IMG/VR virus record: IMGVR_UViG_3300045988_180769
Location: 32,001 to 96,000 of that record
DNA: 64,000 nucleotides
Source of the DNA: a virus
Direction: 5' to 3' (one strand)
Shown one piece after another: positions 2,212 through 50,126 of this stretch. How positions within the stretch are numbered: the stretch's first letter is position 1; the number at the start of each line of letters is the position of its first letter. Below the pieces are notes generated by a model. That model did no database searches. It saw only the letters and a program-made list of their open reading frames with translations, and had not been told where the DNA came from. A program made the position numbers and the translations under genes.

Positions 2212-2840
2212 TTTTTTACATTTGAAATCATATCAAAAAATTCTTTTCTTGATCCAATTTCATTAGTTTTAAAATATCCACTACAATATGAAGTTTGCAT
2301 TGTTGAATCTTGTTCAATTCCTCTCAATTTAACGCACATATGCTCAGCTTTAATAAAAACAATTACTCCTTGATTATCTGGTAAAATTTCACAAAGATAA
2401 TCATGTATTTGTTTTGTTAAAAACTCTTGAGTTTGAGGACGTTTTGATAAAAAATCTACAATACGATTTAGTTTGGATAAACCTATAATATCACCATCTT
2501 TTTTTGGAATATAAGCTAAATGACAAATTCCAACTATACTTGCAAAATGATGAGCACATAAGCTGTGAACAGGTATATCTCCTTGAAATACAATACCATC
2601 ATATTGAGAATCATTTGGAAATACTGTGATCTTTGGAGGATTATCGTATGCTCCTGATGTAATTTCTTTTACATACATTTTTGCTACTCGAAAAGGAGTC
2701 TTCTTCATCGACTCATCATTTTCCCAATCGTATCCCAATGCTGTTAAAAACTCACCATACGCTTTTTCAGCGTCTTTTAACATCTTCTCTCTTTCTTCTT
2801 CTGACAGAATCATATTCTGTCCTGATTTAATTTTCTTCAT
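2208..2840 (-). CDS. folE: GTP cyclohydrolase I (FolE type)
   Basis: FRVAKMY, SLCAHHF (canonical CEHH with E replaced by A), GLSKLNRIVDFLSKRPQTQEFLTKQI and AEHMCVKLRG align with the E. coli FolE signature blocks. Confidence 0.9.
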   Translation of the reverse strand: MKKIKSGQNMILSEEEREKMLKDAEKAYGEFLTALGYDWENDESMKKTPFRVAKMYVKEITSGAYDNPPKITVFPNDSQYDGIVFQGDIPVHSLCAHHFASIVGICHLAYIPKKDGDIIGLSKLNRIVDFLSKRPQTQEFLTKQIHDYLCEILPDNQGVIVFIKAEHMCVKLRGIEQDSTMQTSYCSGYFKTNEIGSRKEFFDMISNVKK

Positions 2841-2843
2841 AAT

Positions 2844-3695: not shown

Positions 3696-4327
3696 ACTTG
3701 TTGATCTACTTTAGGATTTATAAACAAATCTTCATTTGGATTTTTATATGACGATTTTCCTTTCAAATACCAATTCCAGAGATCAGTTCCCCAATCTTTA
3801 GTTACTCCTGTCGAAAATTGAATAGTACCTTCTTTAGTCTCTCCATTTGTCATCACACCAAAAATATTTGGCATATCTAACAAATCTGAAACAAAACTTG
3901 TTGCACTTCCAGTTCTTGTTTCGTAATATTGTACAGAAAGAGCTGTCAATTCAGCTTCACCATTATTCGTTTGAGTGCACATAAGAATACCTTGAATTGC
4001 AGATAAAAGAAATAATGAGAGCATTTCAGCAGAAGGATTAAATGGAAGACTTATCCATCTATCACTATGCTTCATGATGAACTTAATATATTCTTCATCA
4101 TCCTGATTCCAAAACACAGTGCAGTGATCAAAAGAATCAATAAATTGCTTAATTGACCCTTTCATTAATCCAAAATCATAAATCATACCTGCATTATCTA
4201 ATTTAGAAGCAGTGAGACTTACAAGAACTTTGTAAGAATGACCATGAATAGATCTCTTACATCTTTCTGTTGAACAATTGCGCACAATGTGTGCCATTTC
4301 ACCTTCGAATTCTTTAGTAATTATCAT
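3692..4327 (-). CDS. queD: 6-carboxy-5,6,7,8-tetrahydropterin synthase (QueD/PTPS family)
   Basis: FEGEMAHIV...C...IHGHSYKV matches the PTPS/QueD Cys-His-His signature. ATGA overlap with queE. Confidence 0.8.
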   Translation of the reverse strand: MIITKEFEGEMAHIVRNCSTERCKRSIHGHSYKVLVSLTASKLDNAGMIYDFGLMKGSIKQFIDSFDHCTVFWNQDDEEYIKFIMKHSDRWISLPFNPSAEMLSLFLLSAIQGILMCTQTNNGEAELTALSVQYYETRTGSATSFVSDLLDMPNIFGVMTNGETKEGTIQFSTGVTKDWGTDLWNWYLKGKSSYKNPNEDLFINPKVDQQV

Positions 4328-5300: not shown

Positions 5301-5341
5301 AATTTTTCTCGTTTTTAATTGTTGTCCTTTTCTTTTGATAC

Positions 5342-5374
5342 CTAAAGATACACCTTTTGGACCAATGTAGCAAC
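5342..5374 (-). promoter_or_regulatory. promoter candidate, copy A of a perfect 33-nt repeat (GTTG-N20-TATCTTTA)
   Basis: Minus strand reads GTTGCTACATTGGTCCAAAAGGTGTATCTTTAG, identical to 50127-50159. The -7-like box is about 43 nt upstream of the ATG at 5300. Confidence 0.55.
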
Positions 5375-17200: not shown

Positions 17201-19647
17201 TGCAGATAATAACCATCTTTATTTACTGTCCAGTTATACGATCCTGAAATTCTTACAAATTGAGCTTTTCCTTGTTCATCTGTATTAATTGATTCTGTAC
17301 CAATAGTAATAAGAGCGTCTGCAAGTGGTTGATCGTTTATATCAACAACTGTAAAATCGATTGTGTATCCTATTTGAATAAGATTAATCTCTTTTATAAC
17401 TGGTTGGCCATTGATTGTTATTTGACCTTGTTGTGTATAAAATTCTGTTTTTGTAACTTGCCAATTATATGTTCCATCAATCTCTGAAAATACAACTGTT
17501 CCATTGGCATCTGTTTGCAAAGTCATTCCATTGAATGTAACATTTGCTTTCGCAACTGGAAGGCCATTACTTCGAACAATAAATGTTGCATCATACTTAG
17601 GAACAGGATTAAACTGCACATCTATGATTGCATTATTATAAATCGTAAAATCAGCTTCTTTTGTAACAAAGCCTTCTTTAACGACTTTATAGTGATATGT
17701 ACCTGCTGCTAATACAAAACCTGTTCCCAATCCTTGAGCATTCGTTACTCCTGTTTGAGGATCAATATCTGTACCAGTAACTAATATTGATGCACCTGAA
17801 ACTGGATCGACACCATTTCGAACTCTAAATGTAACATTGTAATATGGAATTTTTTCGAGCTCGATTTCAATATTGGTACTATCGATAATCTCAGCATTTC
17901 TTCTTATCGTATAATAATCTTCATACTCGACAACATATGGATAAATTCCTGGAAACACATCAAATGTTGCAATACCACTTGAACTTGTATACTGAATCTT
18001 ACCTCCAAAAGTGATCTTTACATTCTGCATCAATTCTTTTGTTACAGAGTCTCTCACATAGAATGTGACCACTCTTTCATAGGCCAAACCTGGAAGTTGA
18101 ATATACTCAACAGAATCTTTTGTTACAATCAAAACTCCTTCAACTTCATTAAAGTTCTCTGCTGTCGCTTTATAATACCATTGCCCTCTTGGAAGTATAA
18201 TAGATGCTTCACCATTTACATCTGTTTTTAACATTTGTCCATTTATCTCAATAGAAGTGTTTGGTATATATTTATTTCTACTTGAAAACACTTTAAAAAG
18301 TACTCTATAAGTCTCTTCTCCAGTATATGGTCTAATCAATTCACTACCAAAAACATTCTTATATCCAATAAGATAGGTTTTTAAGAAGTTTTCTACAGAG
18401 AATTTCGCCTGATAAGAGTTATTCTTATAATATGCTGCAATGATATCTCTTTCTCCAAGATAACCCTGAGAAAATGGCAAATACAATGGTTTTACTTTGA
18501 AGTCATATACATAAGCATAAGGTGAATTCGATTCTGGTGTTCTATCCTGAATAAATATTGGTGCTATGTATTTCATATTAGGAAGAATTGACAATGCTCT
18601 TCCAGTTGCGAAATTTAAACTTGGTGCATTGAGGAATTTCTCATTTGTTGATAAAAGAAGTCCTTTTATGTAATAATACATTCCTTCGTTTGGCAAATTC
18701 AAATATTCAGCAGTATGAAACCATATCGAATTTCCTGTGATCTGTCCATTTTCGAGAACTCCCATTTCAAGTGGAGCTCCATCTGTTGTTTCATAACCTG
18801 CAACACCAAACTTTAAATTTTCATTAGTTGTTCCTGAAACTTTTACTTGTAATGAAATCTCATAGCTTAAATTAGGATCAATGAGAATAAGTTTACTTAA
18901 ATCCTCTCTTCCATCAATACCAACCATTTGATTTCCAAAGAAAGTCATTGCATTAAAGATCTCACCATCGTCACCATTTTCATCTTGTGTCAAACTAATG
19001 TTTCCTGATGGAAATAATGGATAGTTGTCTAATGACTCTACTCCTTTTGTATATTCGAATGCTTTTGTTACATTCATTACAGTATTCGTTCGATCATAAG
19101 TTGGAGAACTATGACCCATCGCCCATCCTGTACTTTCAGGTTTCAATAAAGCAAAGATAAATTCATCTAATGAATTGTATCTAATTAAGCGAAGGAGTTC
19201 TCCTAAGATTTCTCCTTCTTTGCTTATAATATCTAATCGTCCTCTTTTTGAATATTCCAGTAAATAATTATAGAAGAGATATTCCATTTGATCCTGACTA
19301 TCTACAAGATTAGTCACAAGACCTCTGTTTTGAATAAAGAGTTCGAATAATATCTTGTTTGAATCAATTTCCTTATACTTTCGAGCATAGAGAACTGTTA
19401 ATGCAAACATATGTGTTATCGTTCCCCAAAAAGCTCTAAAGTCAGGATTATCTTTCTTTTTGATGAAAGTTGGTAAAATTCCGATTCCTTCCAATTTAGC
19501 TAATACATTTTCAGCCCAACCCATAACAGCTTTATCATTTTCTTCGAAAAAGCGACTAAAGACCAGGTTATCATATATTGAAGAACTTGAAGTTATAAAT
19601 AAGTCTCCACATGGATGTTCTTCTCTTGGATCAATTCTTTCTCTCAT
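14209..19647 (-). CDS. giant tail fibre / receptor-binding protein (1812 aa): about 11 prealbumin-like repeats, a PKD-like module, and C-terminal BspA-type leucine-rich repeats
   Basis: Repeats of about 80 aa, e.g. YNVTFRVRNG..VSGASILVTG...TNAQG...LAAGTYHYKVVKEGF (coordinates about 15690-18310). PKD-like LRVNWGDGSQTIGTISHTYGTMGTYTITF (about 15530-15620). LRR_5/BspA-like units FANCSKLTEV, FFNCSSLKSV, FQDCSILTSI, FRRCTSLSAP, FKNCTNLRTI, FSGCINLTNM, FYNCSKLINA and YYNCTSLTEY (about 14250-15420). Confidence 0.75.
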   Translation of the reverse strand: MRERIDPREEHPCGDLFITSSSSIYDNLVFSRFFEENDKAVMGWAENVLAKLEGIGILPTFIKKKDNPDFRAFWGTITHMFALTVLYARKYKEIDSNKILFELFIQNRGLVTNLVDSQDQMEYLFYNYLLEYSKRGRLDIISKEGEILGELLRLIRYNSLDEFIFALLKPESTGWAMGHSSPTYDRTNTVMNVTKAFEYTKGVESLDNYPLFPSGNISLTQDENGDDGEIFNAMTFFGNQMVGIDGREDLSKLILIDPNLSYEISLQVKVSGTTNENLKFGVAGYETTDGAPLEMGVLENGQITGNSIWFHTAEYLNLPNEGMYYYIKGLLLSTNEKFLNAPSLNFATGRALSILPNMKYIAPIFIQDRTPESNSPYAYVYDFKVKPLYLPFSQGYLGERDIIAAYYKNNSYQAKFSVENFLKTYLIGYKNVFGSELIRPYTGEETYRVLFKVFSSRNKYIPNTSIEINGQMLKTDVNGEASIILPRGQWYYKATAENFNEVEGVLIVTKDSVEYIQLPGLAYERVVTFYVRDSVTKELMQNVKITFGGKIQYTSSSGIATFDVFPGIYPYVVEYEDYYTIRRNAEIIDSTNIEIELEKIPYYNVTFRVRNGVDPVSGASILVTGTDIDPQTGVTNAQGLGTGFVLAAGTYHYKVVKEGFVTKEADFTIYNNAIIDVQFNPVPKYDATFIVRSNGLPVAKANVTFNGMTLQTDANGTVVFSEIDGTYNWQVTKTEFYTQQGQITINGQPVIKEINLIQIGYTIDFTVVDINDQPLADALITIGTESINTDEQGKAQFVRISGSYNWTVNKDGYYLQQGVVIVNSFNKTVNVVLKLITYNIVFTVRIDGQPVVNQPVVVGSGSNEETLNTDGRGNVTFTKIPGAYPWSVTRTGYDIQTGTAVLTNQSIAIVVDLAKTRGTLTVTVVDNATSTAINNAAVTINGETKYSNINGIAGNWSLILGTWPWTASHTDYKPNSGNLNIVQGQNNYTIRLTEKDAVLYNVTFIAKEGQNTLEGASITIDGETTVATDANGRVVVQLAAGTYHYIAKYGTYFTDLESDFTVYNNMTVNLTFIRKTTTVTIFCYENYGGTQRAIQGASVNFNNTSSVSGADGNALFYNVPMSDNSLICTASKLPVYPSNTTFFTVNKATPIFPIELGAKYYSIIFWVRDDSGNYLSDVAIRCNGTLNYISSSGYCIFSSYPAGTAFSWQATKDAYQSQSGSGTVLEMDTTVNVVMPRNKCMVTYNVRNTAGQPISGVTVTDRISSGVTGTSGTVQWYVPAGDIYGYSATSPYYFTVNGQYTVGPTETSKTVYITMEDGAVIEIQTSTNGEPVSLPIQNTSVTGLGNLRVNWGDGSQTIGTISHTYGTMGTYTITFDFNDQTVQMIWGQPYPLVSFQTQLRRVVKWFTTKVSTSFTERAFANCSKLTEVASWTTGLISGSTDYFFFNCSSLKSVPSNQLSFGTSYISTYEGSNISGAINLTNYLGGYGVDNYYRTFAGTKITNVTGQISPSGQGCTVGSMFQDCSILTSIQFDINAINIINCIGMFRRCTSLSAPCQISFMSGSDCDATYFCAGTGITSLQSNSFIGNVNTAVFTQAFASTNLSQVSSNAFNVHATLSISWVQTFMDNKVLLNIDNIKLNDAILCQSTFEGSGVVTIPSNYFVSDKCASYVGCFKNCTNLRTIGSTIIPASSNSIQSVVEMFSGCINLTNMDKYPFGYSISNATITSGLFKTCLAYNNLFYNCSKLINAPYCELYNKYGVYLDLPMPFMFDPAFQLTFDGFPSMSQIAHTNCYYNCTSLTEYQDLHDQYPNWF

Positions 19648-19701: not shown

Positions 19702-22700
19702 TTACCAGATTAATTTATAACCATAAAAAGTTGTTGGTAACTTTCCTGATATGGCTGGATTTGAATATGATGGGTATGCAAAAGAAATATAAGAATCTCC
19801 ATTCCAAGATAAAACTTCATAAACAGATGGTCTATATACTTCTGATAATCCCCCTGCAACAGATTGATTATATGTACCCTCCATATTAATCTTATCTCCT
19901 GAGCCACCTAAAGATTTCCAAACTCCTTCTACATCGCTATATTGCCAACATGAAAATGATTTTGGATTATTTCCTTCTGCATATGATGTATTTTGAAATA
20001 ATGCTCCAAAACAACCTGCTGTTCCACTTATAAATAAAATCATTTTTGTACCTGACTTTGAAAAAATAATTTCTTGAACATAATAAGAAGCCATTTGACT
20101 TCTTAAAAAAGCTGTATGTTCTGTGTTCATATAAGTTTGTGAATCAACAATAAACCCATTCGCATTAATAATAACATTTCCATTATAATAATAAGAATAA
20201 AGTCCTTTTGCATATCCAAATAAAGTTGGAGACCCTTTTGGAACAAAAAACATCCATGTACAATTAGAATTGATCCAACAATTAGCACCAAGATTTGCTT
20301 GAATTACAGAAACTTGATTATCATAGTATGAATAGTTTGTTGAATTGTTAACTTGTAATGTTCTATCGTATTTTATACAAGAGAGTTTCCATGCTGTTAG
20401 TGCTGAAGCCTGGTCCAAACCCAATGCTAAAGTCACAAAGTATGTATTATCTTCGTAAGCCTTCATAAACTTATAATAAGAAGTTGTTGTATTCACACTA
20501 CCACTCATGTTTATAAGCGTATTGGAGGGTACATAATTATGTAATGTTGCTACGAAAGATTTTGGTTCAAAAGAGGGTGATATGATTATTTCACCTGACT
20601 CCACTGTATTATGACCAAGTACTACACCACCAATGCAAGAATAACTATTTAAACAGCCAAAATTACTAAAATAGTTATTTGGATTAGATGAAGTTCCGAA
20701 TGTTGTATTTATTATTAATCGCGATAAACACTGTTGATGATTGATATTATACATAAGTGTAAATGTTGCAATCGCAATTTTTGGCAAAGATTCCTGAGGT
20801 GATGCTGTGAACATATACAGAATACATTTTTCAAAAGTTCCCCAAGCACCAGATGTTTGGCTTGAAATCTCATGAAAAATCACTTTTGATTTCATTATAT
20901 TCTGATCATACATAGATAAACTTAACTGTTCTGAATATTGTCCAATATTTGAAGTATTCACAGCTGCCATATCAAATTGTCCAAGATTAAAGAAACCTCG
21001 ACTTGAATAAAAGTTAGCGCAACCAACTGATGGGATTTTATTCGAAGGTAAATTATTATAATCAAGAGGAACTACATAGGCTGAACTGTTACTTGGTTGA
21101 GAATAATAAGGATTATAACTTGGACCAATTCCTGTATATCTTCCATAACTATATTGATTACCTGCTGCATAATCATACACTTTTTGCACCCAACCATTAT
21201 TGCCAATATACATAGCTCTTACTTGTACACTTTGATCAATATTAAAGTTCCATACAGCAGGATATGTTGTGGTAACTGGATAATCACCTGAACTTGCACC
21301 TGTGCCCCATCCAGTTACCAATCCTCCTAACTGTAAGTAATAAGCTCCTGGTCTAATAACAATCGATACTGTACCTGCAGAATTCGTTGTTCCTGAATAA
21401 TTTATTGTGCTTTTGTTCGTAGATAATTTTACTGCACAATTAGCTGCAACCAAAGATGTATTATCCTCTCTCACTACATTAAATGTAATCGTAGCTTCAC
21501 TTGGTACGAGCTTAATTGTAAAGTTCGTAGTATTGGCATTAGTTGTCTCTAATGAATCATATTTGGAAGCACTTACTTGGTATCTGTTCGTAAGTCCTGA
21601 TACATAAACTGTTGCCTGTCCTGATGCATTTGTTGTAACAGTTTGTGGTGCGTAACCACCTGAAAAGGCACCTGAAATTGCATTACTACCATTAAGACCA
21701 TACATCTTTATTGTCGCTCCACTTACTGCAGCATTTGTTAAACTGTTTTGAACAGTCACTACAATCGTCTTTATCGCAACAGATGTAAATGCATTTGATT
21801 CTGCAGTTGGAACATTACTGAAATTATATGTAGGGGTGATAACATAAGGAGTTTCAGTTGTAGTTGCTCCTGTTACGAAGTAATTTGCAACTTTTGCCAC
21901 TACTGTTGTCGCAATACCTGCAATCCAAGTATAAGTTCCTAAATAAGAAACAGCTTCACTATTGGAAAGAGTTACTGTAGTTGCAGTACCTGCTGTTGTA
22001 TAAACAGGTTTCATATAAGTATTTATTGCCCACCAACCTAACGCAGAACCATACTTAATTCTAAAAAACGATCCAATAGATCTTGTCAATCTTGAAGCAT
22101 TGTGTGTTGATGCTGCAGTTGGCATATTAATGTTTGCACTACCAGCGACCCAATAACTTGTTCCTCCTCCCCATCTTACTATGTATGTACCAGTAATCAT
22201 TGGTCCAAAACTTACTTGACCTGATGAATTAGTACTTCCACTGAATGTAATAGTAGAAAGAGTTGTATTTGTTAATGTAACTGGACAGCCATTTGTATTT
22301 CCTTTTATGACTCCTTGATATACATCTTTAATCGTAATCGTAATCGAAGAAGTTGCTTCACTCAATATAATATTTACTGGAGAAGCAGTACCTGCAGCTA
22401 ATTGTGCAGATCCTGAAACATAATTTGTTTTTGAATAGGAATAAGTTCTTGTTACAGCACATCCACTTCGTAACAAAGATACATTTCCTGAAGAGTCTGT
22501 TGTTCCAGTTTGACCCAACATTGTTAATGTAACACCACTTAAATTTCCACCATAGTTTTTACTCTTTACATTAAAAGTTATTCTTGTGGAAGCAGTTAAA
22601 TTCATTGTCCAACCTTCACCTTCAGTAGTCCATGTATGAGTCTGTGTGGCATTGCTATAATAACTTGCATAGTTCTTAGGAGTATAAGTGTAAACAAGGC

Positions 22701-25700
22701 CTGCATAGACTGTATTTGATTTTTGACCATTTCCATCTAACGTTAGATCTGCATTTCCTCCAGTACTTGTTCTCGACATCACAGTAGAAGCCAATCTATA
22801 ACTATTCGATCCGATAACTTCATTCACTGTTAATGTTACAGTTACTGTTGTTCTCAGCATTGTAATCGTATATGGACTTGTCTGAGCTGCTGTCACAGTT
22901 CCTGAATAAGGATTGAAATATGTAGCTGTTCCTGTTAATGGTTTATCTAATCCACTTCGATAAAAGAAAACATATCCTTCTGATGTCGTTGTTTCTTTTT
23001 GACCAAAATAAACTAAATTCGCCCCAGGCAACACTGTACTCGCTGGTACATTTGAAACAACATTTACTCTTATTGAATTATTACATTTCAAACTTATCAA
23101 TGCCACCTGACCTGACGAAGTAAAGGTAATCGCATTATCTGGATTACTATAATAATTTCGATAATCAACTACACCAAAAGTAATTGGAGTTCCAAGATAA
23201 CAAGCGAAAGTTACATTTCCTGCTGTATCTAATGTCAATGGACTTGTAGAAGCTGCAGGTGTGAAAGTCATCTTCTTTGATGGATAAACAGATACTGGGT
23301 TGTACGAACCATTACTTGGCGTTGCCTTTCTTGTTAATGTCACTGCTGAACCACCACTATTATTATAGATAGTGATATTATTATTCCCATTTTGGAAAGA
23401 ATAGTCAGAATGACGAGATACCATCTTATCATATGTACATGCTCTCTGGATAATGGTTCCTGCTGTAGAACTTGTAAAATTATTTCCTGTTATATCATAA
23501 ACAGTTGCCAATCCTAATTGCCACGCCACAGGTCTTGTTGTTCCTTGTAAAACAAAGAAGAATGTTGATGAAAATGTTCCAGTAGAGTATGTTCTTATAT
23601 AATACATGTATAAACCCCAATCTCCTGTACCTGCAGTTCCAGTTAACCATCGTGATACTGCACTATCTCCAATTGCATTCGTATGAAAAGAAATACTATA
23701 TCCAGTAGGAACTTTTGCATAAAAATATGCTACATATTCTTTATTTGCAGCAGTTGGGAATGAATATGTAAATCCTCCTAAACCAGGACTTGTACTTCCA
23801 CTTGCTGCAGTCGCAATTTCCAAACAATAACCACTATGAACTAATGTAGCTTCTTGTACACTTAAAGTGACATTCGCAGATAAACGAGAAAGAACAACAT
23901 TCACTGTTCCAGTAGTTCCTGAACCAATCTGCCCAGATGTTCCTGTATGATATGTAGCTGAAACTTGATATTCTCTTCCTGGAACGCCTCTATAGAAACT
24001 TACATTACCACTCGAATCAGTCACACCAGCCTGTCCAAAGAAAGTTACATTCGCACCACTCAAATTAGTCCCTGATGGAATATTTGATTTAATATTGAAT
24101 GTAATTCGAGCTGTAATATTCAATGTCATTTTGAAAGTTTGATTCGCAGCAGTGAAAGTATAAGTTTGTGTTGGATTGCTATACCACGAAGGCGCTTCTT
24201 GTACTGTAAATGTTGTTGGCGTTCCAAGATATGCTGTAAATGATACAGTACTGTTTGCATTCAATGTAACACTGCTTCCACTTGTAAGTGGTGAAACAGT
24301 TATAGGTCGATTTGGGTAACTATAATCTGTTGTTGCCCCTGGATATCTTTCAACCACCTGTAAAGTTACAGTAGCAGTCTTTCTTGTCAATACAATATTG
24401 AATGGAGATGCAGAAGTTGATAATATTGTTCCGCTATAACCATTTATATAAGAACTGTCGCCTACAGTTATTGACTTATCCAATCCACTTCTATAGAAAG
24501 ATGCGTTTCCTGAAGCATCTGTGGTTTTCGTTTGATTGAAATATGTCACGCTCATATTTGCAGCGACATTTCCAGTTGGAACATTTACTTTAGTATTTAC
24601 CACAATCTGTTTTGCACAAGTCAATGACATCGTCTGTGATTGACCTTCACTTGTATATGTGAATGATTGAGATGGATTACTATAAAAATCAGTATTTTCT
24701 GTTACACTAAATGTTATCGCTGTTCCAAGAATACCACTGAATGAAACATTTCCTGAAGAATCTGTTGTAATATTTCCAGTAGATGAACCTGCTGTCCATT
24801 TAATCGTTTTACCAGCGTAAGCAAATGTTCCTGTGACTCCTGGAATTGTTTCTACTACTTTCAATACAATAGGAGTTGTTGCTCTTATCATTGTAATATT
24901 GAAAGGGGAAGATTGTGCTGCAGTCAGGGTCGTTGATAATGTATCAAAATATGTCGCAGAAGAAGAAAGGCTTTGATTCAAACCACTTCTTAAGAAAGTC
25001 GCATTTCCAGATGCATCTGTTGTCTTTGTCTGATGGAAATACGATACAGATGCTCCTTGAATATTTGTACTCGCAGGAATATTTGATTTAACATTTACCA
25101 CTACATTTGCAGAACAAGTTAAATTCATCACCCATGACTGTCCTGATGCTGTGAATGTATGAGCTTGACTGGCATTACTGTAATAGTTCGAATAATTCGT
25201 TGGAACAAATGTATAAGAAATTCCAAGATAATAAGTACCACTGACTAATTGTCCATTAGCGTTTAGATCATGAGAAGATCCTGTTATCCCTGGTCTTGAA
25301 ATTGTAATTTTGCTATTCGCCAATGGATAGTTTGTTCCTGAAATCGTTTCATTTACTGTTAAAAGCGCAGTAACAGCAATTCTTGTCAATGTCACTGTAA
25401 GTGGTGATGTTTGAGCTGCTGTAATTGTTCCAGAATAAGGATTGAAGTAAGAACCATTACTTACACTTAATCCTTGTGTTAATCCACTTCGATATAATGA
25501 AACTGTACCATCGCTCGCTGCTGTTCCTGTTTGATTGAAATATGTAACTGTTGCTCCACCTAAATTAGGATCGGTTACATATATGTCTGTTATGGCTTTA
25601 ATCGTTATTTTTGCTGAACAAGTTAAATTCATTGCAAACGATTGACCTGCTGCAGTATATGTATGAGATTGAGTTGGATTGGAATAAAACTCAGGGTGCA

Positions 25701-28700
25701 ATACAACTGCGAAACTTATTGGAATGCCTAAGTATGCATCAAAAGATGCTGTACCTGTCGCGCTTAATGTTAATGTCCCATTTCCTGCTGCAGATGTATA
25801 ATTGATCGTCATTCCATTATAAGCAAACGATCCAGTCACTCCTGGAATAACCTCTGCAACACTAATTGTTACTGTTTGCTTAATTCTATATAGCAATACA
25901 TTTACTGGAGAAGTAGTTGTAGGAGTTATAGTTCCTTGTTTAGTATCGTATCCACTATCATCTACACTATAATCTTTTGTTAAAGCAGAACGATATAAAA
26001 CAGCGTTTCCTGATGCATTCGTTGTTACTTGTTGTGAATTCCAAGTTACTGTTGCTCCTTGTAAATTAGTACCAGCATATTGATCTTTTACATTAAATGT
26101 GATTTGAGCTGATACGTTCAAATTCATTGGCCAAATATATCCATCCTCTGTCCAAGTATAAGTTTGTGTTGGATTTGAATAAAAGTTTGGATAAGCATCT
26201 GTTGTAAATGTATATGGTAGCGTTTTGATCAATGTCATATTTGCATATCCATTCTCATCTAAGGTAATTGTAATTTCACCTGCCTTAGATGTCATTGTAA
26301 GAGTTTGGTCTGCTAAATAAGCACTTCCATTTGAACCAAAAATCTCTGACACCTGAATACCAGCATTAATCAATTCATACTTAACCTCAACATCAATAAC
26401 TGTTCCAGTAGAAGTTTGAGGATGAAAGAATGTTCCAGTTGTGATTTCACCAGCCAAAACTGCGTAACTGTAATTTCCAGTAAATACATCTGGAATAATT
26501 GTTAAACCATTTACATCAGTTGTTCCTTCATAAACAAGTGTTGACTTATCTTCATTGGTAATTCTTACTATGATTCCTTCTGGTGCTATAATACCTCCTG
26601 TAGAAACATTGAATGTAACTGGAAAGACTTGTGCTTTCAATGTAATATCCATTCTTGTTTCACTTCCAGTAGGAGTAAATGTCAATGTCGTTGTATCATA
26701 ATATTGAGCGCTTACTGTATAATTCATCGATATTGGTGAAAGATACATATAAACTATTCCATCACTATCTGTAGTTTGAGTTTGATCAACACTCATTCCT
26801 TTGAAGACAACAGTTGCTCCTGTTAATTCTCCATATTGATCACTTGTAACATAAACAGGTATTCTTTTTGAACAAGTATATGTTAAAATAGGAGTTTTGG
26901 CATCTGTGTTATTAAGTTTTACTACTGCTCCATTACCTTCATAAAAAACAACTGGTTGTACCTCAAATCTCTCAGGCAAACCAGCATAAATTGTTTTTGT
27001 GAATTGACCACTCGCGTTGGTCGTAACATTGGGTCCTGATGAAGTACCATTTTCATTGTAATAACATGCTAATACAAGACCAGCTTTGACAGGATTCGCT
27101 GTGGACGATATTAATGGCAGAATTTCTTTTACTGTCGCTGTGATAGAGAACGATCTTCTCGTAGCAATAATGCTCGTTGTTTTTTCTGTAGGTAGATAGA
27201 TATCTTTTGTTGCGACCTCATAATTTCCATTTGCATCTCCAACAGTGATTTTATAATTTCCAGGTGGAATATTAAATGTTCCATTTCCAAGAGTATTCAA
27301 TACACCATTGGCATTCGTTGTCCCTGTAAATGTATATTGTTGACTTGGTGTCCCACCCCAAGTACTTGATACTGTTACAGGACAAGATTCTGCAACATGA
27401 TTATATGGAACAGTATTACTTACTGTTAGATTAAATGTGATCTGTTCATATGTTAATACGAGATCAATATAATCATTCGTCAATGGAGGAGTAAATGTTC
27501 CAGTCAATACATTATGATCGGGGAATGTACAAGTGTAACCCATTGTTAATGGAGTAATATATACTTTCGCTGAACCATCTGATCCTGATGTAACAGTTTG
27601 ATCTAAACTCATTCCTGTTACAACTATCTCTGCACCTTCCAATGGTCTTAATGTATTTGCCTGTTTTACTCGAAGTTCTAATTGTTTAGAAGCTGTGATT
27701 TGCATATCAACAGGAAAATTTCCTTCGAAATTCCATGACATTATAAATAATCCATTGTTTGTATAGAAACCAGCTTCTGTGATTGTAAATTCATAAGAAA
27801 CTCCTGGAGTTATATCTGGAAAAATTGCTCCATTTTCATTAGTAGTATATTGCTTTGTTGTTCCATCGACAGTATTCTTTGCAGTTACCTTTAATCCTGA
27901 TTTAACTGGCATAAAACGAGAAGACTTTTGTTGAGTCAACTTTATATTTCCAGTTGATTGACTAACTTCTGTTGTAACTGTTAAATCAATATAACATTCT
28001 CTTGGTGTCGCGTCCCTTTTTAGTTCAACATTTTCAGCTACATTTATCTGAGTTCCTTCTAAAGTAGCAAATGGACTGGGTATGGGGATAATGTTTATAT
28101 CTAATCGAGCACCACCTAACAATAACCAATCGTATTCGACATTCAAACCTCCATCTTCTGGTCTTCTAAAAGTTTGAACCAAATCTCTCATGTCAAAAGA
28201 AATAGCACTGTTTGGAACAAGAATACTTTCAGGCATTCTTAAAACATAATAAAAACCATCATTTCCTAAGGCTTCTACTGATTTTACTCCTGATACTTTA
28301 ACTGTATCTTCATCTCCACTTACTCCTGGAATAAACTCTGTTAAATCAACTTCTGTATTAATGTCTTTTCTTTTCATTGTAAATGGCACCTCAATATCTT
28401 TGAGCTTTTCTAATGTAACATCTTGTGTCACTGAAATATACCATTTGTGAGTTGCAGTCCAAGTATAATCATCAGCCTCTGCTGATAAGGTTACTTGACC
28501 TAAAGCATTCGTTACTCCTGAAGTAACTTTCTCCATTGTACCTTTATTTACAAGATCAATGTTCACTCCTTCAATTACTTCTCCAGTTAATTGATCTGTG
28601 GCAATGAAAGTTACTTCTGTATCTCGAATTTGAATATAAATTGTTTCAACTACATCCTGATCTTTAATAGTAACTGTTCCAGTATATCTCTTATAATTAG

Positions 28701-31002
28701 GATTCGTCACTACATATGTATATGTTCCATTTCCCAACATCACTGATGTAACTCCATTGACATTAGTGATCGCTGTCTCTCCATTGATTGATAATTGTGC
28801 TCCTTGAATGAAATTTCCATTCTCAATATCTCTAACTGTCAATCTAAAAGTATAATATGCCTTTCCTAACTTTACAATCTGTGATATTGACTCTCCATCT
28901 ACAACCAGTCTATTGGAATAAGTCATGTATCCTGTTTTGAAAATAGAATAATCATAAATACCATCAGGTAAACTAATAATTGCAACACCATTTTCATCTG
29001 CAATATATGTTGCATTATTTATCGAAACAGTAGCTCCAGGAATAACTGTTTCAGTCTCTTCATCTAATATCGTGAATTTGATTTCATAAGGAACTGCAGC
29101 CATTTCAATCACAACGCAGTTTGGTTCTTCACCAACTACTGTAATGTTTTGAGTTTTCCTTTGATATCCCTCTTTTAATACAGTTACTTCGTAATTACCA
29201 ACCTCAAGTCCTATTTCAGCCTGTCCTTCTTCGTTGGTTACTTCGTTTTGATTGACTACAGAAATATTCGCTTGTGGAACATAAACACTTCTTGTTCTAT
29301 CTATCACTGCAAAACTTACTGTAAGTGTTTCTAAAAACATTCTTTCGAATATTTCTAATGGTTGATTTTCAACTGTCAGAACACTTTCAATTGTTTTAAA
29401 TCCAGCCTTAGTTATTGTATAACTATATGTTCCAGGTTCGAGCTCAACTTTTGCTATTCCATCAGGATCTGTTGTTATTGTATAAATACCAACATTTATC
29501 GAAGCACCTTCCATTGGCGCGTTTCCTTCGTAAACAGTAAATACGACTTCATAAGGAGTCGCTGTAAAATCATTTACTGTTACAAAAACAGGACCATTTA
29601 ATACAACAAATTCACCAGTCTTTTGAGTCCAATTTGCTTTTGTTAAGCTAAAACTATATTCACCATTTTCGAGAAGAATATTCGCTGTTCCATTAGCATC
29701 TGTGATAATTACTTTATTACCTATTGTAATGTAAGCACCAGGAACTGGAATATTTTTTAAATTTGTTACAGTAAAAGATACAAGATATTTTTGAGATACA
29801 ATAGTTGTTTGTGTTCCTTTATAAATGTCATTATCACTCGCAGGATAAAAGATGTTCGAAAGATCAGAACCAGAATCATATAAAATATTCCCTTCCAGAT
29901 CTCTCATTCTAAATCCTTTGATTCTTGGTAACATATTCAAAGGTACTTCTTCATCATAATAGGGAAAGAAATATTCATCAGGAACATACTTAACACCATC
30001 TGATGATTTCACTACTTGTAAAAGATCGTCCCACTGAACAGTTTTTCCTGGCTCCCAAAATCTAAAATCCAAATATTTGGTCATTGCAATTTGAATATTC
30101 TTTCTTACATCTGCAATGTCTGTATCAGGATAAAGTTCAACTCTAAAGTCTACACCTTCTTCTCCACCAACATACATCCATTTTGCATTCTCAAGAACAA
30201 CACCAATTGTTTCTCCTGACAAATTTAATTCTGTTAAACCAAAATAAGGAGTTGCTTGTTCGAGGAGTGTTTCAAGTTCGTCATCAGTAAAAAACGATCC
30301 ATTCTGTGTAACAAGATAGATATGTGTTTTACCATCCTCACCAAGTCCAACATTCATCACTCTCAAAATTCTACTATCTAAATCCTGGAATATTTGTGTC
30401 CAAGATTCCATTGTTTCTTCTGAAAGCTTATTGTTGTAATTTATAATTCTGTTTCTAAATGTCTCATCATCCTCATAATCACGACCTCCAATAGCTGCAT
30501 ATTCATTTGTACACTCAATATGTGTCAATGGTCTTGGAGATACTTGAGTTATACTGTTTGCTTCTACATTAGTTGCTGAACCAGTAATAACACTCTTTAC
30601 ACTTACATATCCATATCCTGAATTATCAACTGTATAAGCCTGATCAACAATAAATCGTATACCATTCTTTGAAATGAAATATGTTCCAACTGCATAAATT
30701 GTTCCAGGTTGTGCAAAAACTCGTACATAAGTAGATGATCCTAAAGCCTGTTTTCTTGGACTTACACCAAACAATGCTGCAGACTTATCCAGATAATCTC
30801 CAGTCGCTGATTTTGGAAATATCTGCGCTTCTACGATACTAATGTCTTTAAGTGCTTTTTGTGCAACCTTTGCTGTACCAAAAGCAACTCCATTCAAGAT
30901 CGATCCATCAGCAATGTTGGACACCTTATCTGTCTTATTTAAAAACATTTCGATCCACAAGTTTTTTAAATTTGCGATCGTACTACTTGTTTTTGTAATC
31001 AT
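19702..31002 (-). CDS. giant baseplate protein (3766 aa): Baseplate-J-like N-terminal domain fused to dozens of beta-sandwich repeats and a distinct C-terminal domain
   Basis: The N-terminal ~400 aa fit the gpJ/gp6 pattern: DYLDKSAALFGVSPRKQALGSSTYVRVFAQPGTIY...GSATNVEANSITQV...AIGGRDYEDDETFRNRI. From about 29790 downward come serial ~85-aa CarboxypepD_reg-like modules (...GA.I.I......TD.NG.A...L..G.Y.Y...K.G...). Seven ~166-aa super-repeats follow. Uninterrupted ORF with an ATG start. Confidence 0.8.
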   Translation of the reverse strand: MITKTSSTIANLKNLWIEMFLNKTDKVSNIADGSILNGVAFGTAKVAQKALKDISIVEAQIFPKSATGDYLDKSAALFGVSPRKQALGSSTYVRVFAQPGTIYAVGTYFISKNGIRFIVDQAYTVDNSGYGYVSVKSVITGSATNVEANSITQVSPRPLTHIECTNEYAAIGGRDYEDDETFRNRIINYNNKLSEETMESWTQIFQDLDSRILRVMNVGLGEDGKTHIYLVTQNGSFFTDDELETLLEQATPYFGLTELNLSGETIGVVLENAKWMYVGGEEGVDFRVELYPDTDIADVRKNIQIAMTKYLDFRFWEPGKTVQWDDLLQVVKSSDGVKYVPDEYFFPYYDEEVPLNMLPRIKGFRMRDLEGNILYDSGSDLSNIFYPASDNDIYKGTQTTIVSQKYLVSFTVTNLKNIPVPGAYITIGNKVIITDANGTANILLENGEYSFSLTKANWTQKTGEFVVLNGPVFVTVNDFTATPYEVVFTVYEGNAPMEGASINVGIYTITTDPDGIAKVELEPGTYSYTITKAGFKTIESVLTVENQPLEIFERMFLETLTVSFAVIDRTRSVYVPQANISVVNQNEVTNEEGQAEIGLEVGNYEVTVLKEGYQRKTQNITVVGEEPNCVVIEMAAVPYEIKFTILDEETETVIPGATVSINNATYIADENGVAIISLPDGIYDYSIFKTGYMTYSNRLVVDGESISQIVKLGKAYYTFRLTVRDIENGNFIQGAQLSINGETAITNVNGVTSVMLGNGTYTYVVTNPNYKRYTGTVTIKDQDVVETIYIQIRDTEVTFIATDQLTGEVIEGVNIDLVNKGTMEKVTSGVTNALGQVTLSAEADDYTWTATHKWYISVTQDVTLEKLKDIEVPFTMKRKDINTEVDLTEFIPGVSGDEDTVKVSGVKSVEALGNDGFYYVLRMPESILVPNSAISFDMRDLVQTFRRPEDGGLNVEYDWLLLGGARLDINIIPIPSPFATLEGTQINVAENVELKRDATPRECYIDLTVTTEVSQSTGNIKLTQQKSSRFMPVKSGLKVTAKNTVDGTTKQYTTNENGAIFPDITPGVSYEFTITEAGFYTNNGLFIMSWNFEGNFPVDMQITASKQLELRVKQANTLRPLEGAEIVVTGMSLDQTVTSGSDGSAKVYITPLTMGYTCTFPDHNVLTGTFTPPLTNDYIDLVLTYEQITFNLTVSNTVPYNHVAESCPVTVSSTWGGTPSQQYTFTGTTNANGVLNTLGNGTFNIPPGNYKITVGDANGNYEVATKDIYLPTEKTTSIIATRRSFSITATVKEILPLISSTANPVKAGLVLACYYNENGTSSGPNVTTNASGQFTKTIYAGLPERFEVQPVVFYEGNGAVVKLNNTDAKTPILTYTCSKRIPVYVTSDQYGELTGATVVFKGMSVDQTQTTDSDGIVYMYLSPISMNYTVSAQYYDTTTLTFTPTGSETRMDITLKAQVFPVTFNVSTGGIIAPEGIIVRITNEDKSTLVYEGTTDVNGLTIIPDVFTGNYSYAVLAGEITTGTFFHPQTSTGTVIDVEVKYELINAGIQVSEIFGSNGSAYLADQTLTMTSKAGEITITLDENGYANMTLIKTLPYTFTTDAYPNFYSNPTQTYTWTEDGYIWPMNLNVSAQITFNVKDQYAGTNLQGATVTWNSQQVTTNASGNAVLYRSALTKDYSVDDSGYDTKQGTITPTTTSPVNVLLYRIKQTVTISVAEVIPGVTGSFAYNGMTINYTSAAGNGTLTLSATGTASFDAYLGIPISFAVVLHPEFYSNPTQSHTYTAAGQSFAMNLTCSAKITIKAITDIYVTDPNLGGATVTYFNQTGTAASDGTVSLYRSGLTQGLSVSNGSYFNPYSGTITAAQTSPLTVTLTRIAVTALLTVNETISGTNYPLANSKITISRPGITGSSHDLNANGQLVSGTYYLGISYTFVPTNYSNYYSNASQAHTFTASGQSWVMNLTCSANVVVNVKSNIPASTNIQGASVSYFHQTKTTDASGNATFLRSGLNQSLSSSATYFDTLSTTLTAAQSSPFNITMIRATTPIVLKVVETIPGVTGTFAYAGKTIKWTAGSSTGNITTDSSGNVSFSGILGTAITFSVTENTDFYSNPSQSFTYTSEGQSQTMSLTCAKQIVVNTKVNVPTGNVAANMSVTYFNQTKTTDASGNASFYRSGLDKSITVGDSSYINGYSGTILSTSASPFNIVLTRKTATVTLQVVERYPGATTDYSYPNRPITVSPLTSGSSVTLNANSTVSFTAYLGTPTTFTVQEAPSWYSNPTQTYTFTAANQTFKMTLNITARITFNIKSNIPSGTNLSGANVTFFGQAGVTDSSGNVSFYRGVPGREYQVSATYHTGTSGQIGSGTTGTVNVVLSRLSANVTLSVQEATLVHSGYCLEIATAASGSTSPGLGGFTYSFPTAANKEYVAYFYAKVPTGYSISFHTNAIGDSAVSRWLTGTAGTGDWGLYMYYIRTYSTGTFSSTFFFVLQGTTRPVAWQLGLATVYDITGNNFTSSTAGTIIQRACTYDKMVSRHSDYSFQNGNNNITIYNNSGGSAVTLTRKATPSNGSYNPVSVYPSKKMTFTPAASTSPLTLDTAGNVTFACYLGTPITFGVVDYRNYYSNPDNAITFTSSGQVALISLKCNNSIRVNVVSNVPASTVLPGANLVYFGQKETTTSEGYVFFYRSGLDKPLTGTATYFNPYSGTVTAAQTSPYTITMLRTTVTVTLTVNEVIGSNSYRLASTVMSRTSTGGNADLTLDGNGQKSNTVYAGLVYTYTPKNYASYYSNATQTHTWTTEGEGWTMNLTASTRITFNVKSKNYGGNLSGVTLTMLGQTGTTDSSGNVSLLRSGCAVTRTYSYSKTNYVSGSAQLAAGTASPVNIILSEATSSITITIKDVYQGVIKGNTNGCPVTLTNTTLSTITFSGSTNSSGQVSFGPMITGTYIVRWGGGTSYWVAGSANINMPTAASTHNASRLTRSIGSFFRIKYGSALGWWAINTYMKPVYTTAGTATTVTLSNSEAVSYLGTYTWIAGIATTVVAKVANYFVTGATTTETPYVITPTYNFSNVPTAESNAFTSVAIKTIVVTVQNSLTNAAVSGATIKMYGLNGSNAISGAFSGGYAPQTVTTNASGQATVYVSGLTNRYQVSASKYDSLETTNANTTNFTIKLVPSEATITFNVVREDNTSLVAANCAVKLSTNKSTINYSGTTNSAGTVSIVIRPGAYYLQLGGLVTGWGTGASSGDYPVTTTYPAVWNFNIDQSVQVRAMYIGNNGWVQKVYDYAAGNQYSYGRYTGIGPSYNPYYSQPSNSSAYVVPLDYNNLPSNKIPSVGCANFYSSRGFFNLGQFDMAAVNTSNIGQYSEQLSLSMYDQNIMKSKVIFHEISSQTSGAWGTFEKCILYMFTASPQESLPKIAIATFTLMYNINHQQCLSRLIINTTFGTSSNPNNYFSNFGCLNSYSCIGGVVLGHNTVESGEIIISPSFEPKSFVATLHNYVPSNTLINMSGSVNTTTSYYKFMKAYEDNTYFVTLALGLDQASALTAWKLSCIKYDRTLQVNNSTNYSYYDNQVSVIQANLGANCWINSNCTWMFFVPKGSPTLFGYAKGLYSYYYNGNVIINANGFIVDSQTYMNTEHTAFLRSQMASYYVQEIIFSKSGTKMILFISGTAGCFGALFQNTSYAEGNNPKSFSCWQYSDVEGVWKSLGGSGDKINMEGTYNQSVAGGLSEVYRPSVYEVLSWNGDSYISFAYPSYSNPAISGKLPTTFYGYKLIW
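22400..26500 (-). repeat. seven tandem ~500-nt (~166-aa) coding super-repeats within the 3766-aa gene
   Basis: The landmark motif (F/Y/W)YSN(P/A)(T/S/D)Q..T(F/W/Y)T..G recurs at about 26180, 25685, 25180, 24685, 24185, 23150 and 22655. Each unit also carries ...TTDASGNA.F.RSGL.... Spacing is about 500 nt, except for a ~530-nt insertion at 23330-23860. Confidence 0.75.
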
Positions 31003-31007
31003 AGCAA

Positions 31008-31910
31008 TTATATTGGAACATTAATTAAAAAATCTTCTTTTGTTACTGTAACAGCTTTCACTTTCATGAAAACACTATCGTCTTTTTTCACCAAATCAAT
31101 TAATTCAGCACTCGCCCATCTATTGTCTCTCTGGAACATATTCATCAATGCTTTAAAAATAATAGGGTATTGAATTGCATTGGTTGTTGTGCCTATAAAT
31201 TCATTGGGGAGTCCATAATCTTTAAATTCTGGAATGCAACCTTTTAGAGCTTCAAGTACAATTGTTAAGGCCTGATCCATCGATTCGTGATACTTAATTG
31301 CTCTCAAATCATTATTCTCAAAACTAAAGTTCATATCTATATCTTTCCCAAGAATATTTTGATCCACAAGAGTATCAACTACATTATCAACATAATTCAC
31401 ACCCATGTTTTTCAAATTAACAAAGAAAGTATTACTACCTTCACCTGCCACATAATCCTCCTCAATTATATATTGAGGAATAGTTATATCCATCCAATCA
31501 TCTTCAGGTTCATTTGATTCCATTTGTTCAGAAACTGATTCAAATGTTTCTCCTGTCCTGAGTTGTTTGGCCATCTGTAATGTATTTGTTCTTCCAACTG
31601 TAGCACTTCTTAACCATCTGTCAGAGTTCTTTATCGTTAGAAGTTTTGTTTCAATCTCAGAAAAGTCTTCCAATAGCTCCCACATAGAAAGATCGTCCAA
31701 CTTATTTTCATGAAGTTGAAATAGTGGCTCGATTATTCTTACTTGTGAAATGAGTTTATCTAATTCATGGAATGACTTTGCATCTATTTCTCCTCCCTGA
31801 TAATAATCAACAATGTAAGGATAGTAGTTGTTGCAAAAGTCTACATATGATTGGAAAAACTCTTTTATGTTATAACCAGTCACTGATTTGAATTTTTCAA
31901 ACATATCCAT
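31008..31910 (-). CDS. hypothetical baseplate-module protein (300 aa)
   Basis: ATG-initiated ORF immediately upstream of the J-like gene. The assignment is positional only. Confidence 0.5.
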   Translation of the reverse strand: MDMFEKFKSVTGYNIKEFFQSYVDFCNNYYPYIVDYYQGGEIDAKSFHELDKLISQVRIIEPLFQLHENKLDDLSMWELLEDFSEIETKLLTIKNSDRWLRSATVGRTNTLQMAKQLRTGETFESVSEQMESNEPEDDWMDITIPQYIIEEDYVAGEGSNTFFVNLKNMGVNYVDNVVDTLVDQNILGKDIDMNFSFENNDLRAIKYHESMDQALTIVLEALKGCIPEFKDYGLPNEFIGTTTNAIQYPIIFKALMNMFQRDNRWASAELIDLVKKDDSVFMKVKAVTVTKEDFLINVPI

Positions 31911-31912
31911 AG

Positions 31913-32689
31913 TTATAATATATTAGCGATTGATGCAGCTAAATCATTCACACCTTTTTGAACAACACCTGCTGCACAGATTTTTGTTAATGCTGTTTTT
32001 GCTTTCGCTGAACCAGCCACAGCATCGAGTGGAGCGATTGCTATCATTGTTAAATTGTAGTCCCAAATCATGTTCTTATTCAAGTTTTGAGAAAACGATA
32101 TTCCTGATGGAGGAACGACAACCAAGTAACTTTCTCCAAGAGCGAGATTATAAAAATACAATCTTAATGGCAATCCAGTTTTATCTACACCACTACTTTT
32201 TGATATAATACCTTGTAACATTTTGATACATCCAAATCCAGTTTTGATACCAGCATCAAAGGCTGGTGTTTGAAGACCAAAAGTACTTTTTCCAGAAATG
32301 GATGTCAATGAATATTTTCCTGCTGATAAACTATAACCAGCTCCTGTCACACTACTCATTCCTCCACCAATAGACAACAATATTTTAAATGTCCTACCAA
32401 AATCACCTCTTATATTGATTTCTTGTGGAGTAAAAGTTGGAGTACTCATTACTGTGATACCACCAGCTGTGTTTCTAATTGTTTCTCTTTTAGGATCTGT
32501 TTTTGTAATGTTGTTTGGATTTATTGGAAATGTGAAAAAGTCTATTGTATTGCCTTGTGAATCAGCTAATTCCAGAGTACAAAGATACACCTCAAAATCA
32601 TTTGGATATTGAGATGCTAAAATTGCTCTACCTGCTGTTTCAATAATACCTGCTGCAGTTTTGATCGCAGCACTCGCTATATTTGCCAT
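31913..32689 (-). CDS. baseplate-module protein, possibly a tube-fold/tube-initiator-like protein
   Basis: FFTFPINPNNITKTDPKRETIRNTAGGITVMSTPTFTPQEINIRGDFG resembles the N-terminal strand pattern of contractile-system tube-family proteins. Lies between the spike-like and J-like genes. Confidence 0.35.
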   Translation of the reverse strand: MANIASAAIKTAAGIIETAGRAILASQYPNDFEVYLCTLELADSQGNTIDFFTFPINPNNITKTDPKRETIRNTAGGITVMSTPTFTPQEINIRGDFGRTFKILLSIGGGMSSVTGAGYSLSAGKYSLTSISGKSTFGLQTPAFDAGIKTGFGCIKMLQGIISKSSGVDKTGLPLRLYFYNLALGESYLVVVPPSGISFSQNLNKNMIWDYNLTMIAIAPLDAVAGSAKAKTALTKICAAGVVQKGVNDLAASIANIL

Positions 32690-50089: not shown

Positions 50090-50126
50090 CTTGAATTTGT
50101 TTTTAGTTATTGATCTTTTTCTTTAT

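Follow-up and report, generated by a model that had tools for sequence, protein, structure and literature searches.

J/Tri2 proteins form the conserved mechanical core of contractile injection systems. In the diffocin, each triplex is built from two Tri2 conformers and one Tri1, and Tri2's C-terminal dimerization domains link neighboring triplexes into an iris ring, which takes up the triggering signal; the fiber is fixed to Tri1 (PMC10996793). The solved J/Tri2 homologs are 350-495 amino acids (aa) long. Here, we describe a viral gene in which a domain of this family opens a protein of 3766 aa. The gene lies in a stretch of 64,000 nucleotides (nt) from IMG/VR virus record IMGVR_UViG_3300045988_180769 (positions 32,001 to 96,000), which we refer to as the window. 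We consider it probable that the product is a fiber anchored in the baseplate of a contractile-tailed phage, with a J/Tri2 domain as its anchor, about 32 modules as its spacer, and a swappable receptor-binding tip. A baseplate-anchored receptor-binding fiber is an already known kind of protein; we found no description of giant fibers fused to J in the searchable literature, though the sequences sit in public metagenome collections.

The gene is a single uninterrupted open reading frame (ORF) of 3766 codons with an ATG start, and its predicted product has a mass of 407 kDa and an isoelectric point of 5.1. It shares its span with no further ORF of 150 aa or more. An earlier note on this stretch had likewise described one 11.3-kb ORF, and had proposed that a wedge domain followed by more than 3000 aa of serial modules forms a baseplate-anchored fiber. 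This proposal is now supported by profile searches, by AlphaFold2 (AF2) models compared with Foldseek, by at least ten independent, complete orthologs, and by purifying selection on the whole stalk. From the N terminus to the C terminus, the parts of the gene are as follows, with the kind of evidence in parentheses (HMM, hidden Markov model; dN/dS, ratio of nonsynonymous to synonymous substitution rates; handles beginning with L denote the loci that were compared).

19702..31002, minus strand: complete 3766-aa Baseplate-J/fiber fusion (complete orthologs of 3176-3783 aa in IMG/VR loci L009-L016, L018, and L019)
29788..31002, minus strand: Baseplate_J wedge domain of the triplex Tri2 / Mu gp47 type, aa 1-405 (PF04865, phrog_6, and PDB profile matches)
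28405..29787, minus strand: proximal stalk, aa 406-866, six CarboxypepD_reg-like modules with a period of 78-79 aa (Pfam and HMM)
27928..28404, minus strand: aa 867-1025, possibly a beta-sandwich, ending ...RECYIDLTVTTEVSQSTGNIKLTQ (the end, at aa 1001-1024, that the earlier note called BACON-like)
26383..27927, minus strand: some six more beta-sandwich modules (aa 1026-1540), of which the HMM recognizes four
23851..26382, minus strand: super-repeats 1-5, aa 1541-2384, each of 164-168 aa and made of a module A and a module B (spacing, alignment, AF2, and Foldseek)
23338..23850, minus strand: 171-aa orphan insert in super-repeat 6, aa 2385-2555 (alignment)
22333..23337, minus strand: rest of super-repeat 6 and super-repeat 7, aa 2556-2890 (motif, alignment, and AF2)
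21286..22332, minus strand: some four distal modules (aa 2891-3239), with the final two CarboxypepD_reg-like modules of the chain at aa 3082-3160 and 3175-3226 (HMM)
21190..21234, minus strand: constant/variable junction, aa 3257-3271, QSVQVRAMYIGNNGW (homologous to the inverted-repeat peptide QSITLYALYVSSSGW... of sister phages)
19705..21189, minus strand: variable C-terminal cassette of 495 aa, aa 3272-3766, putative receptor-binding tip (identity drop and dN/dS)

Our results establish that the giant ORF is real. The window has a GC content of ~33%, and all of its large ORFs lie tightly packed on one strand. At this GC content, stops make up ~7.5% of random codons, and the chance of an open frame of 3766 codons is ~1e-127. 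When IMG/VR was scanned for the junction between the J domain and the modules, 12 loci were recovered, 10 of which carry complete ORFs of 3176-3783 aa; of the remaining two, one has an ORF that is complete at its 3' end and runs off the contig upstream, and one is cut by the contig end. A 2696-aa version is present in GenBank record MT835500, from human feces. Furthermore, pairwise dN/dS was 0.03 in the J domain, 0.02-0.2 in the stalk, 0.33 in the nested insert, and 0.36-0.56 in the tip, from which it follows that the whole ORF is translated and under selection. Specifically, these ratios indicate that the stalk is under purifying selection.

One could still argue that the ORF is an artefact, that is, a chimera, an expanded or collapsed repeat, or a set of genes joined by sequencing error. 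It is repetitive, and two relatives do not present it in one piece. L004 is collinear with the window ORF along its full length (74% identity), and a 1-nt deletion in an A9 run (L004 11839-11855, ~29140 of the window) breaks its gene after aa 621 into pieces of 621 and 3141 aa; the window reads CAAAGGAAAAC at this site and has no A9-type run. Sequencing error, mutation, and a slippery site are all possible origins of this split in a relative of 96% identity. In the scaffold of L007, the ORF appears as four, due to runs of N. Against an artefact stand the ten IMG/VR contigs and others with complete collinear orthologs, the low dN/dS along the stalk, and the improbability of so long an open frame by chance. 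Moreover, the repeats share only 60-70% identity as DNA and exact repeats do not exceed ~22 nt, which makes assembly collapse or expansion implausible. A frameshifted gene or pseudogene was ruled out on the same material. No repeat is similar enough to collapse, and the only splits seen in relatives are the homopolymer indel in one contig and the N gaps in one scaffold, so that the refuting conditions on assembly and frameshifts named in the earlier note fail to refute the proposal. An artefact is effectively refuted, and we assign it next to no probability.

The start of the protein had been described as Baseplate-J-like, and profile searches bear this out. PF04865 (Baseplate_J) matched aa 68-192 (E = 3.2e-16; 59.8 bits vs a cut-off of 21.1), and phrog_6, annotated as "baseplate wedge subunit," matched aa 51-338 (E = 2.2e-31). 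When a profile of 14 J homologs was compared with the PDB, it matched the gp65 "triplex" protein (9g8s_C, E = 2.8e-10), diffocin TRI-2 CD1371 (8v3w_E, E = 6e-10), and Mu gp47 (9ki1_H, E = 1.7e-9). Together, these matches identify the N-terminal domain as a J/Tri2-type wedge domain. In the deposited structures, Mu gp47 accounts for 12 chains per entry, diffocin TRI-2 for 36 chains in three entries, and gp65 for 24 chains in two. There is no second J homolog in the 64-kb window.

What sets the protein apart is that it does not stop where its relatives do. Among the best 120 of 795 J-domain homologs, nearly all are stand-alone proteins of 390-400 aa, and proteins of this kind share 55-61% identity with the window domain. 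They end near aa 388 of the window protein, where a linker of 17 aa (aa 389-405) leads into the stalk. In a neighbor-joining tree, the fused forms of J grouped away from the stand-alone forms, which indicates that only a single clade carries the fusion.

The stalk (aa 406-3239) is an array of repeated modules. PF13620 (CarboxypepD_reg) matched it in seven stretches (E = 1.1e-35; 122.3 bits vs a cut-off of 32.3). A self-trained module HMM recognized 22 modules in the J-fusion ORF and 11 in the next ORF, and, counted by length, the stalk would hold ~32 CarboxypepD_reg/CnaB-like beta-sandwich modules. The modules of ~85 aa that had been noticed earlier are thus present and of the family suggested, except that the first six follow the shorter period of 78-79 aa. 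These six make up the proximal stalk, which is kept in all fusion lineages (identity of 85% to L018, 66% to L009, and 46% to L012). More distally, the architecture varies. The J fusion of MT835500.1 (L003, 20001-28091), which comes from a Mexican human fecal sample, has the J domain (65%) and the first array of modules in common with the window; its distal part is quite unlike that of the window, with no CarboxypepD_reg-like modules beyond ~aa 2216, and distal architecture is therefore lineage-specific.

Between the proximal stalk and the later modules, the segment at aa 867-1025 had been compared to the end of a BACON-type domain. This identity could not be confirmed: the window segment gave no Pfam match even at E<=5, and BACON (PF13004) matched only one of five orthologs of the segment, at E = 0.023. 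A profile of the five copies gave a weak match to an intimin Ig domain (E = 0.04).

Seven super-repeats of about 166 aa had been proposed for the stalk, and the motif [FWY]YSN[PA], which belongs to module A, does recur at seven sites (aa 1607, 1772, 1940, 2106, 2273, 2617, and 2781). The spacings are 165, 168, 166, 167, 344, and 164 aa. According to the alignment, the long spacing reflects the 171-aa domain nested after the first strand of module A in super-repeat 6. An AF2 model of repeat 5, the insert, and repeat 6, computed with an alignment of the window's own paralogous repeats, was all-beta; its predicted local distance difference test score (pLDDT) reached ~90 in repeat 5 and lay at 70-88 in repeat 6. 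The best Foldseek matches to this model were tandem CnaB-type modules of Gram-positive pilins (E = 1e-8 to 1e-5), TIE proteins, and the adhesin MpIBP, with template-modeling (TM) scores that were low owing to inter-domain geometry. The model and its matches assign a beta-sandwich fold to the stalk modules. The modules resemble those of a spacer or stalk, and the glycan-binding brush that the earlier note suggested is only a putative role.

The nested insert is probably all-beta as well, and its pLDDT was below 46. It is absent from L009-L011, and identity to L004 across the insert is 51%. It had no Pfam match, and a word-indexed search of 5.8e9 proteins gave no homolog; since this database did not return the giant orthologs, the absence of a homolog means none outside those.

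A further observation concerns the B modules (e.g., aa 1631-1717 and 2297-2384; nt 23851-26110). CnaB pilins carry Lys-Asn isopeptide bonds. In the B modules, the first strand can hold a Lys (NVK) and the last strand an Asn (SPxNxxL); the two residues occur together in five of the seven modules and are both missing from the other two, with a few exceptions in orthologs. No conserved catalytic acid for such a bond was seen in the B modules.

The chain ends in a non-repeat region of 527 aa (aa 3240-3766), in which Asn, Ser, and Tyr make up ~30% of residues vs ~18% in the J domain. The earlier description of a unique C-terminal domain rich in these residues holds, at 527 aa (495 aa for the cassette) rather than the ~700 aa proposed. 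Identity to L018/P0121 collapses right after QSVQVRAMYIGNNGW, which places the cassette boundary at aa 3271. For example, aa 1026-3239 are 93-100% identical to L018, vs 36% and 57% in the cassette. Relative to L004, identity is 96-99% in the J domain, 57-97% in the stalk, 22-42% at aa 3301-3600, and 22-65% across the cassette overall. These comparisons indicate that the tip is the fast-evolving part of the protein and is exchanged as a cassette. A recombination boundary at aa ~3059 was considered and rejected as an effect of the N gaps in the L007 scaffold, given the position of the boundary in the intact L018. Hypervariation driven by a diversity-generating retroelement was also ruled out, as there is no template/variable repeat pair in the 64-kb window.

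Homologs of the tip are very few. The word-indexed search with the tip returned only one scaffold fragment of an ortholog. An exhaustive phmmer search of 1.84e9 representatives returned 17 proteins of 186-585 aa, 15 of which match the last ~200 aa only and two of which show short, repeated matches. Three of the 17 were looked up, and all three are silent inverted cassettes. Two of them are inverted ORFs with a giant J fusion (3209 and 3420 aa) on one side and a gene of ~1800 aa on the other; the third has the same placement, between two genes that are cut by the ends of a 4.9-kb contig. In these sister phages, a segment of 2.7-3.0 kb starts inside the giant gene and holds its C-terminal 450-490 aa, and the inverted repeats at its ends can be read in frame in either arm. 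The invertible segments, given in the coordinates of each locus, are the following.

L009, 17306-20212: invertible segment, inverted repeats of 65-66 nt with perfect complementarity
L010, 17309-20221: invertible segment, inverted repeats of 65-66 nt with perfect complementarity
L011, 17306-20152: invertible segment, inverted repeats of 65-66 nt with perfect complementarity
L022, 7770-10679: invertible segment, inverted repeats of 65 nt with 98% complementarity
L024, 5344-8507: invertible segment, inverted repeats of 78 nt with 95% complementarity

The inverted repeat of L009 encodes QSITLYALYVSSSGWFAPVTS, which is in frame in both arms and homologous to the junction motif of the window. Outside the segment, L009 and L010 are collinear (98% identity), and inside it they are inverted. 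As a consequence, L009 expresses the end ...KITWGE and keeps the end ...YTNTIW silent, and L010 and L011 do the reverse. These paired orientations establish, for the assembled genomes, that a tip homologous to that of the window is switched by DNA inversion in sister phages. This logic, which is like that of Mu G and P1 C, is a strong argument that the tip sets host specificity. Within the cassettes, there is also a nested, perfect inverted repeat of 27 nt (L009, 18221-18247 / 19208-19234; L022, 8748-8774 / 9735-9761) that encodes YPKGLNSYY and could allow shufflon-like shuffling of the last ~160 aa alone. The counterpart in the window is YAKGLYSYYY (aa 3597-3606, nt 20185-20214).

The window itself contains no inverted repeat of at least 40 nt; it has one fixed cassette, with 54 nt from the ORF to the next gene, and L004 and L007 likewise have a single fixed cassette. 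A tblastn search with a Mu Gin query found no Gin-like invertase in the window or in the loci, which cover ~17-21 kb around each segment, and none of the 30 ORFs scanned, out of 54 on the coding strand of the window, matched a recombinase family in Pfam. Given that none lies next to a segment, the recombinase would be encoded elsewhere in the phage genome or by the host.

The neighboring genes place the fusion in a tail module, after baseplate genes of the tube-initiator type and before genes in the Tri1/fiber position.

31008..32689, minus strand: a 300-aa baseplate protein (phrog_975) and a 258-aa tail-tube initiator (PF23980), upstream (profile matches and synteny)
14209..19647, minus strand: next gene, 1812 aa, in the Tri1/gpI position (11 CarboxypepD_reg-like modules by HMM, a weak PKD match, and conservation of the first ~430 aa)

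Further upstream lie genes for large proteins without assignment and probable sheath and tube genes. On the downstream side, the gene for the 1812-aa protein is accompanied by small genes and by genes for an RNase T-like exonuclease and a terminase that contains an intein. The same gene order recurs in Bacteroides phages DAC16 to SJC03, in Chryseobacterium phage MA9V-3, and in numerous metagenomic contigs, ~100-110 kb in size. MA9V-3 is a myovirus with a contractile tail of 164 nm (PMC13120357). Relatives stem from human fecal samples, and the phage from which the window derives is related to Bacteroidota phages and probably of gut origin. The window yielded no tRNA, and a search of 185,579 representative genomes gave no prophage copy; its only matches were irrelevant J-like proteins of Lactobacillus and Enterococcus.

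The 1812-aa protein may represent a second case of the same kind. Homology of its first ~430 aa links it to a 786-aa protein from genomes with a stand-alone J and to a product of 555 aa that is encoded after J in MA9V-3; its C-terminal ~430 aa are without annotation. In the stand-alone genomes, J is followed by small genes, the 786-aa protein, and a 470-aa fiber-like protein. In the clade of the window, both peripheral baseplate proteins have thus gained module arrays, and the 1812-aa protein is probably a second extended baseplate fiber. The assignment of this protein as Tri1/gpI is positional only, as its N terminus had no PDB or PHROG profile match to the Tri1/gpI families.

Taken together, these findings suggest how the fusion protein might work. 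Its first ~390 aa would form the J/Tri2 subunit of the wedge triplex, with two copies per wedge and 12 per baseplate, as in the solved systems. The stalk would be a flexible chain, ~110-140 nm long if extended (assuming ~4 nm per module), and the 495-aa variable tip would be the receptor-binding domain that sets host range. There would then be 12 chains per virion, probably as six pairs leaving the inter-wedge dimers, and these could span a thick capsule or surface layer to reach a receptor. Because the chain continues past the point where stand-alone J ends, and because the ring is built from Tri2 dimers, receptor engagement would be covalently coupled to the iris ring and could be passed straight to the element that triggers contraction. 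What we infer is that the protein is present in the virion, in this copy number and pairing and at this extended length, that its tip binds the receptor, and that it couples directly to the trigger.

Several points weigh against this interpretation. In the solved systems, the fiber attaches to Tri1 and not to Tri2/J (PMC10996793). Twelve 407-kDa chains on the iris ring, as the predicted geometry has it, might be sterically costly. The split of the L004 gene after aa 621 may mean that a short form of J is tolerated or even used. In addition, the tip had no sequence match in Pfam, PHROG, or the PDB that would reveal a recognizable binding or enzyme family, and its AF2 model had a mean pLDDT of 54.8 and a predicted TM score (pTM) of 0.68, and was confident for the last ~250 aa only.

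Other functions have to be considered for the same architecture. The stalk could serve mainly as an adhesin for mucus or epithelium ("bacteriophage adherence to mucus"), with Ig-like modules that bind animal glycans, and other proteins, such as the 1812-aa and 277-aa products encoded downstream, could recognize the host cell instead. Bacteroidota gut phages, including an unclassified group of myoviruses, do carry modular Ig-like adhesins (BACON, PKD, and unspecified Ig), and such adhesins confer epithelial binding once they are displayed on another phage (PMC13370021). The ~32 beta-sandwich modules, the weak PKD match in the adjoining ORF, and the fecal origin of the relatives would fit this account. 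However, the modules of the window are of the CarboxypepD_reg/CnaB type and not of the BACON and PKD types tested in that study, and BACON is unconfirmed here. Strong purifying selection on the stalk, with diversification in the tip only, also speaks against it, and inversion of the tip in sister phages is, like Mu S/S', the signature of a host-range determinant. We therefore regard a principal role in mucus adhesion as improbable.

We give similarly little weight to a tip that is a beta-propeller glycosidase or lyase, that is, a capsule depolymerase on a long tether rather than a pure binding domain. The Foldseek matches to the tip model were mainly beta-propellers, namely lyases (including L-rhamnose-alpha-1,4-D-glucuronate lyase), GH43 arabinanases, sialidases, and viral attachment proteins, with the K1E endosialidase tailspike and paramyxovirus attachment proteins among them, and the pTM of the model lends this some credit. 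Yet TM scores were 0.15-0.37, with a root-mean-square deviation of ~10-13 A, and half of the model had a pLDDT below 50. No conserved catalytic motif was identifiable, and the lack of sequence matches counts here as well. We treat the propeller-like fold as a hint only. Mucus adhesion alongside host recognition, or an enzymatic tip, may possibly be combined with a baseplate-anchored fiber that recognizes the host, and would be compatible with it.

The baseplate-anchored fiber carries a bolder corollary. It would mean that J/Tri2 itself is the receptor-binding fiber, with 12 chains that pull on the inter-wedge dimers without a Tri1-fiber adaptor, and that the same clade has a new in-frame inversion switch with sub-cassette shuffling. 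We put this combination forward tentatively, as one that may well fail in some of its parts. If true, the chain from fiber to trigger and the inversion switch would constitute an as yet undescribed way in which gut phages wire host recognition to the firing of the tail. A naturally occurring clade with J/Tri2 drawn out into a fiber of ~100 nm would offer a test case for how a receptor signal reaches the contraction trigger, and possibly a scaffold on which tailocins or phages could carry receptor-binding tips that are built in and swappable. More generally, our analysis pinpoints a probable host-range determinant for a group related to Bacteroidota phages. That sister lineages phase-vary this determinant by inversion bears on the prediction of host range from metagenomes.

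The window has other features that lie apart from the fusion gene. A conserved intergenic motif of ~63 nt occurs at 251-313, 5312-5374, and 50097-50159, with the core CTAAAGATACACCTTTTGGACCAATGTAGCAAC on the plus strand, upstream of genes on the minus strand; on the coding strand it reads TTG...TATCTTTAG and resembles the -33/-7 promoter consensus of Bacteroidota. The large terminase (7818-10523, minus strand) has an intein (Hint and LAGLIDADG) between its N-terminal region and its nuclease domain, and there is a LAGLIDADG domain in an ORF of 657 aa at 55175-57148 (minus strand). Finally, three adjoining genes at 2208-4327 (minus strand) code for FolE (GTP cyclohydrolase I), a QueE-like radical-SAM enzyme, and a QueD-like 6-pyruvoyl-tetrahydropterin synthase, a set that suggests 7-deazaguanine DNA modification made by the phage.

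Compared with known systems, the fusion is familiar at its base. Its N-terminal ~390 aa are homologous to Mu gp47, P2 gpJ, diffocin CD1371, R-pyocin PA0618, and T4 gp6, which occupy the same position in the order of tail genes. Solved Baseplate_J/Tri2 proteins and the nearest relatives remain within 350-495 and 390-400 aa, respectively, vs 3766 aa in the window, and whereas the C terminus of solved Tri2 stops at the dimerization domain of the iris ring, the window chain runs 3360 aa further. The sister phages can be likened to the G segment of Mu (S/S', U/U', Gin) and the C segment of P1 (Cin). In L009-L011, L022, and L024, the constant part of the fiber runs in frame, within an inverted repeat, into either of two alternative C-terminal cassettes that are convergent, and both orientations occur. 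The window differs from those segments in its single cassette and its lack of an inverted repeat, and a Gin-like invertase was found neither in the window nor in the sister loci examined. In the sister phages, no U-like chaperone genes lie between the cassettes, and the inverted repeats are protein-coding and 65-78 nt long.

Beyond its base, the protein has its counterparts among Gram-positive pilins and giant bacterial adhesins made of tandem CnaB/transthyretin-like modules (e.g., PitA, BcpA, SpaD, TIE proteins, and MpIBP), with which it shares the module fold, a beads-on-a-string arrangement, and a distal adhesive domain. Unlike Gram-positive pilins, it has no sortase, secretion, or cell-wall anchor and would be anchored by a phage baseplate domain instead, and isopeptide bonds are only a candidate feature of its modules. 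T4 Hoc, a protein of ~40 kDa with four domains, also presents tandem beta-sandwich modules on the virion; in comparison, the window protein would be anchored in the baseplate, is of the CarboxypepD_reg type, and is far longer. The modular Ig-like adhesins of phages that infect gut Bacteroidota (PMC13370021) likewise have tandem beta-sandwich modules on the virion, as we predict for the window protein.

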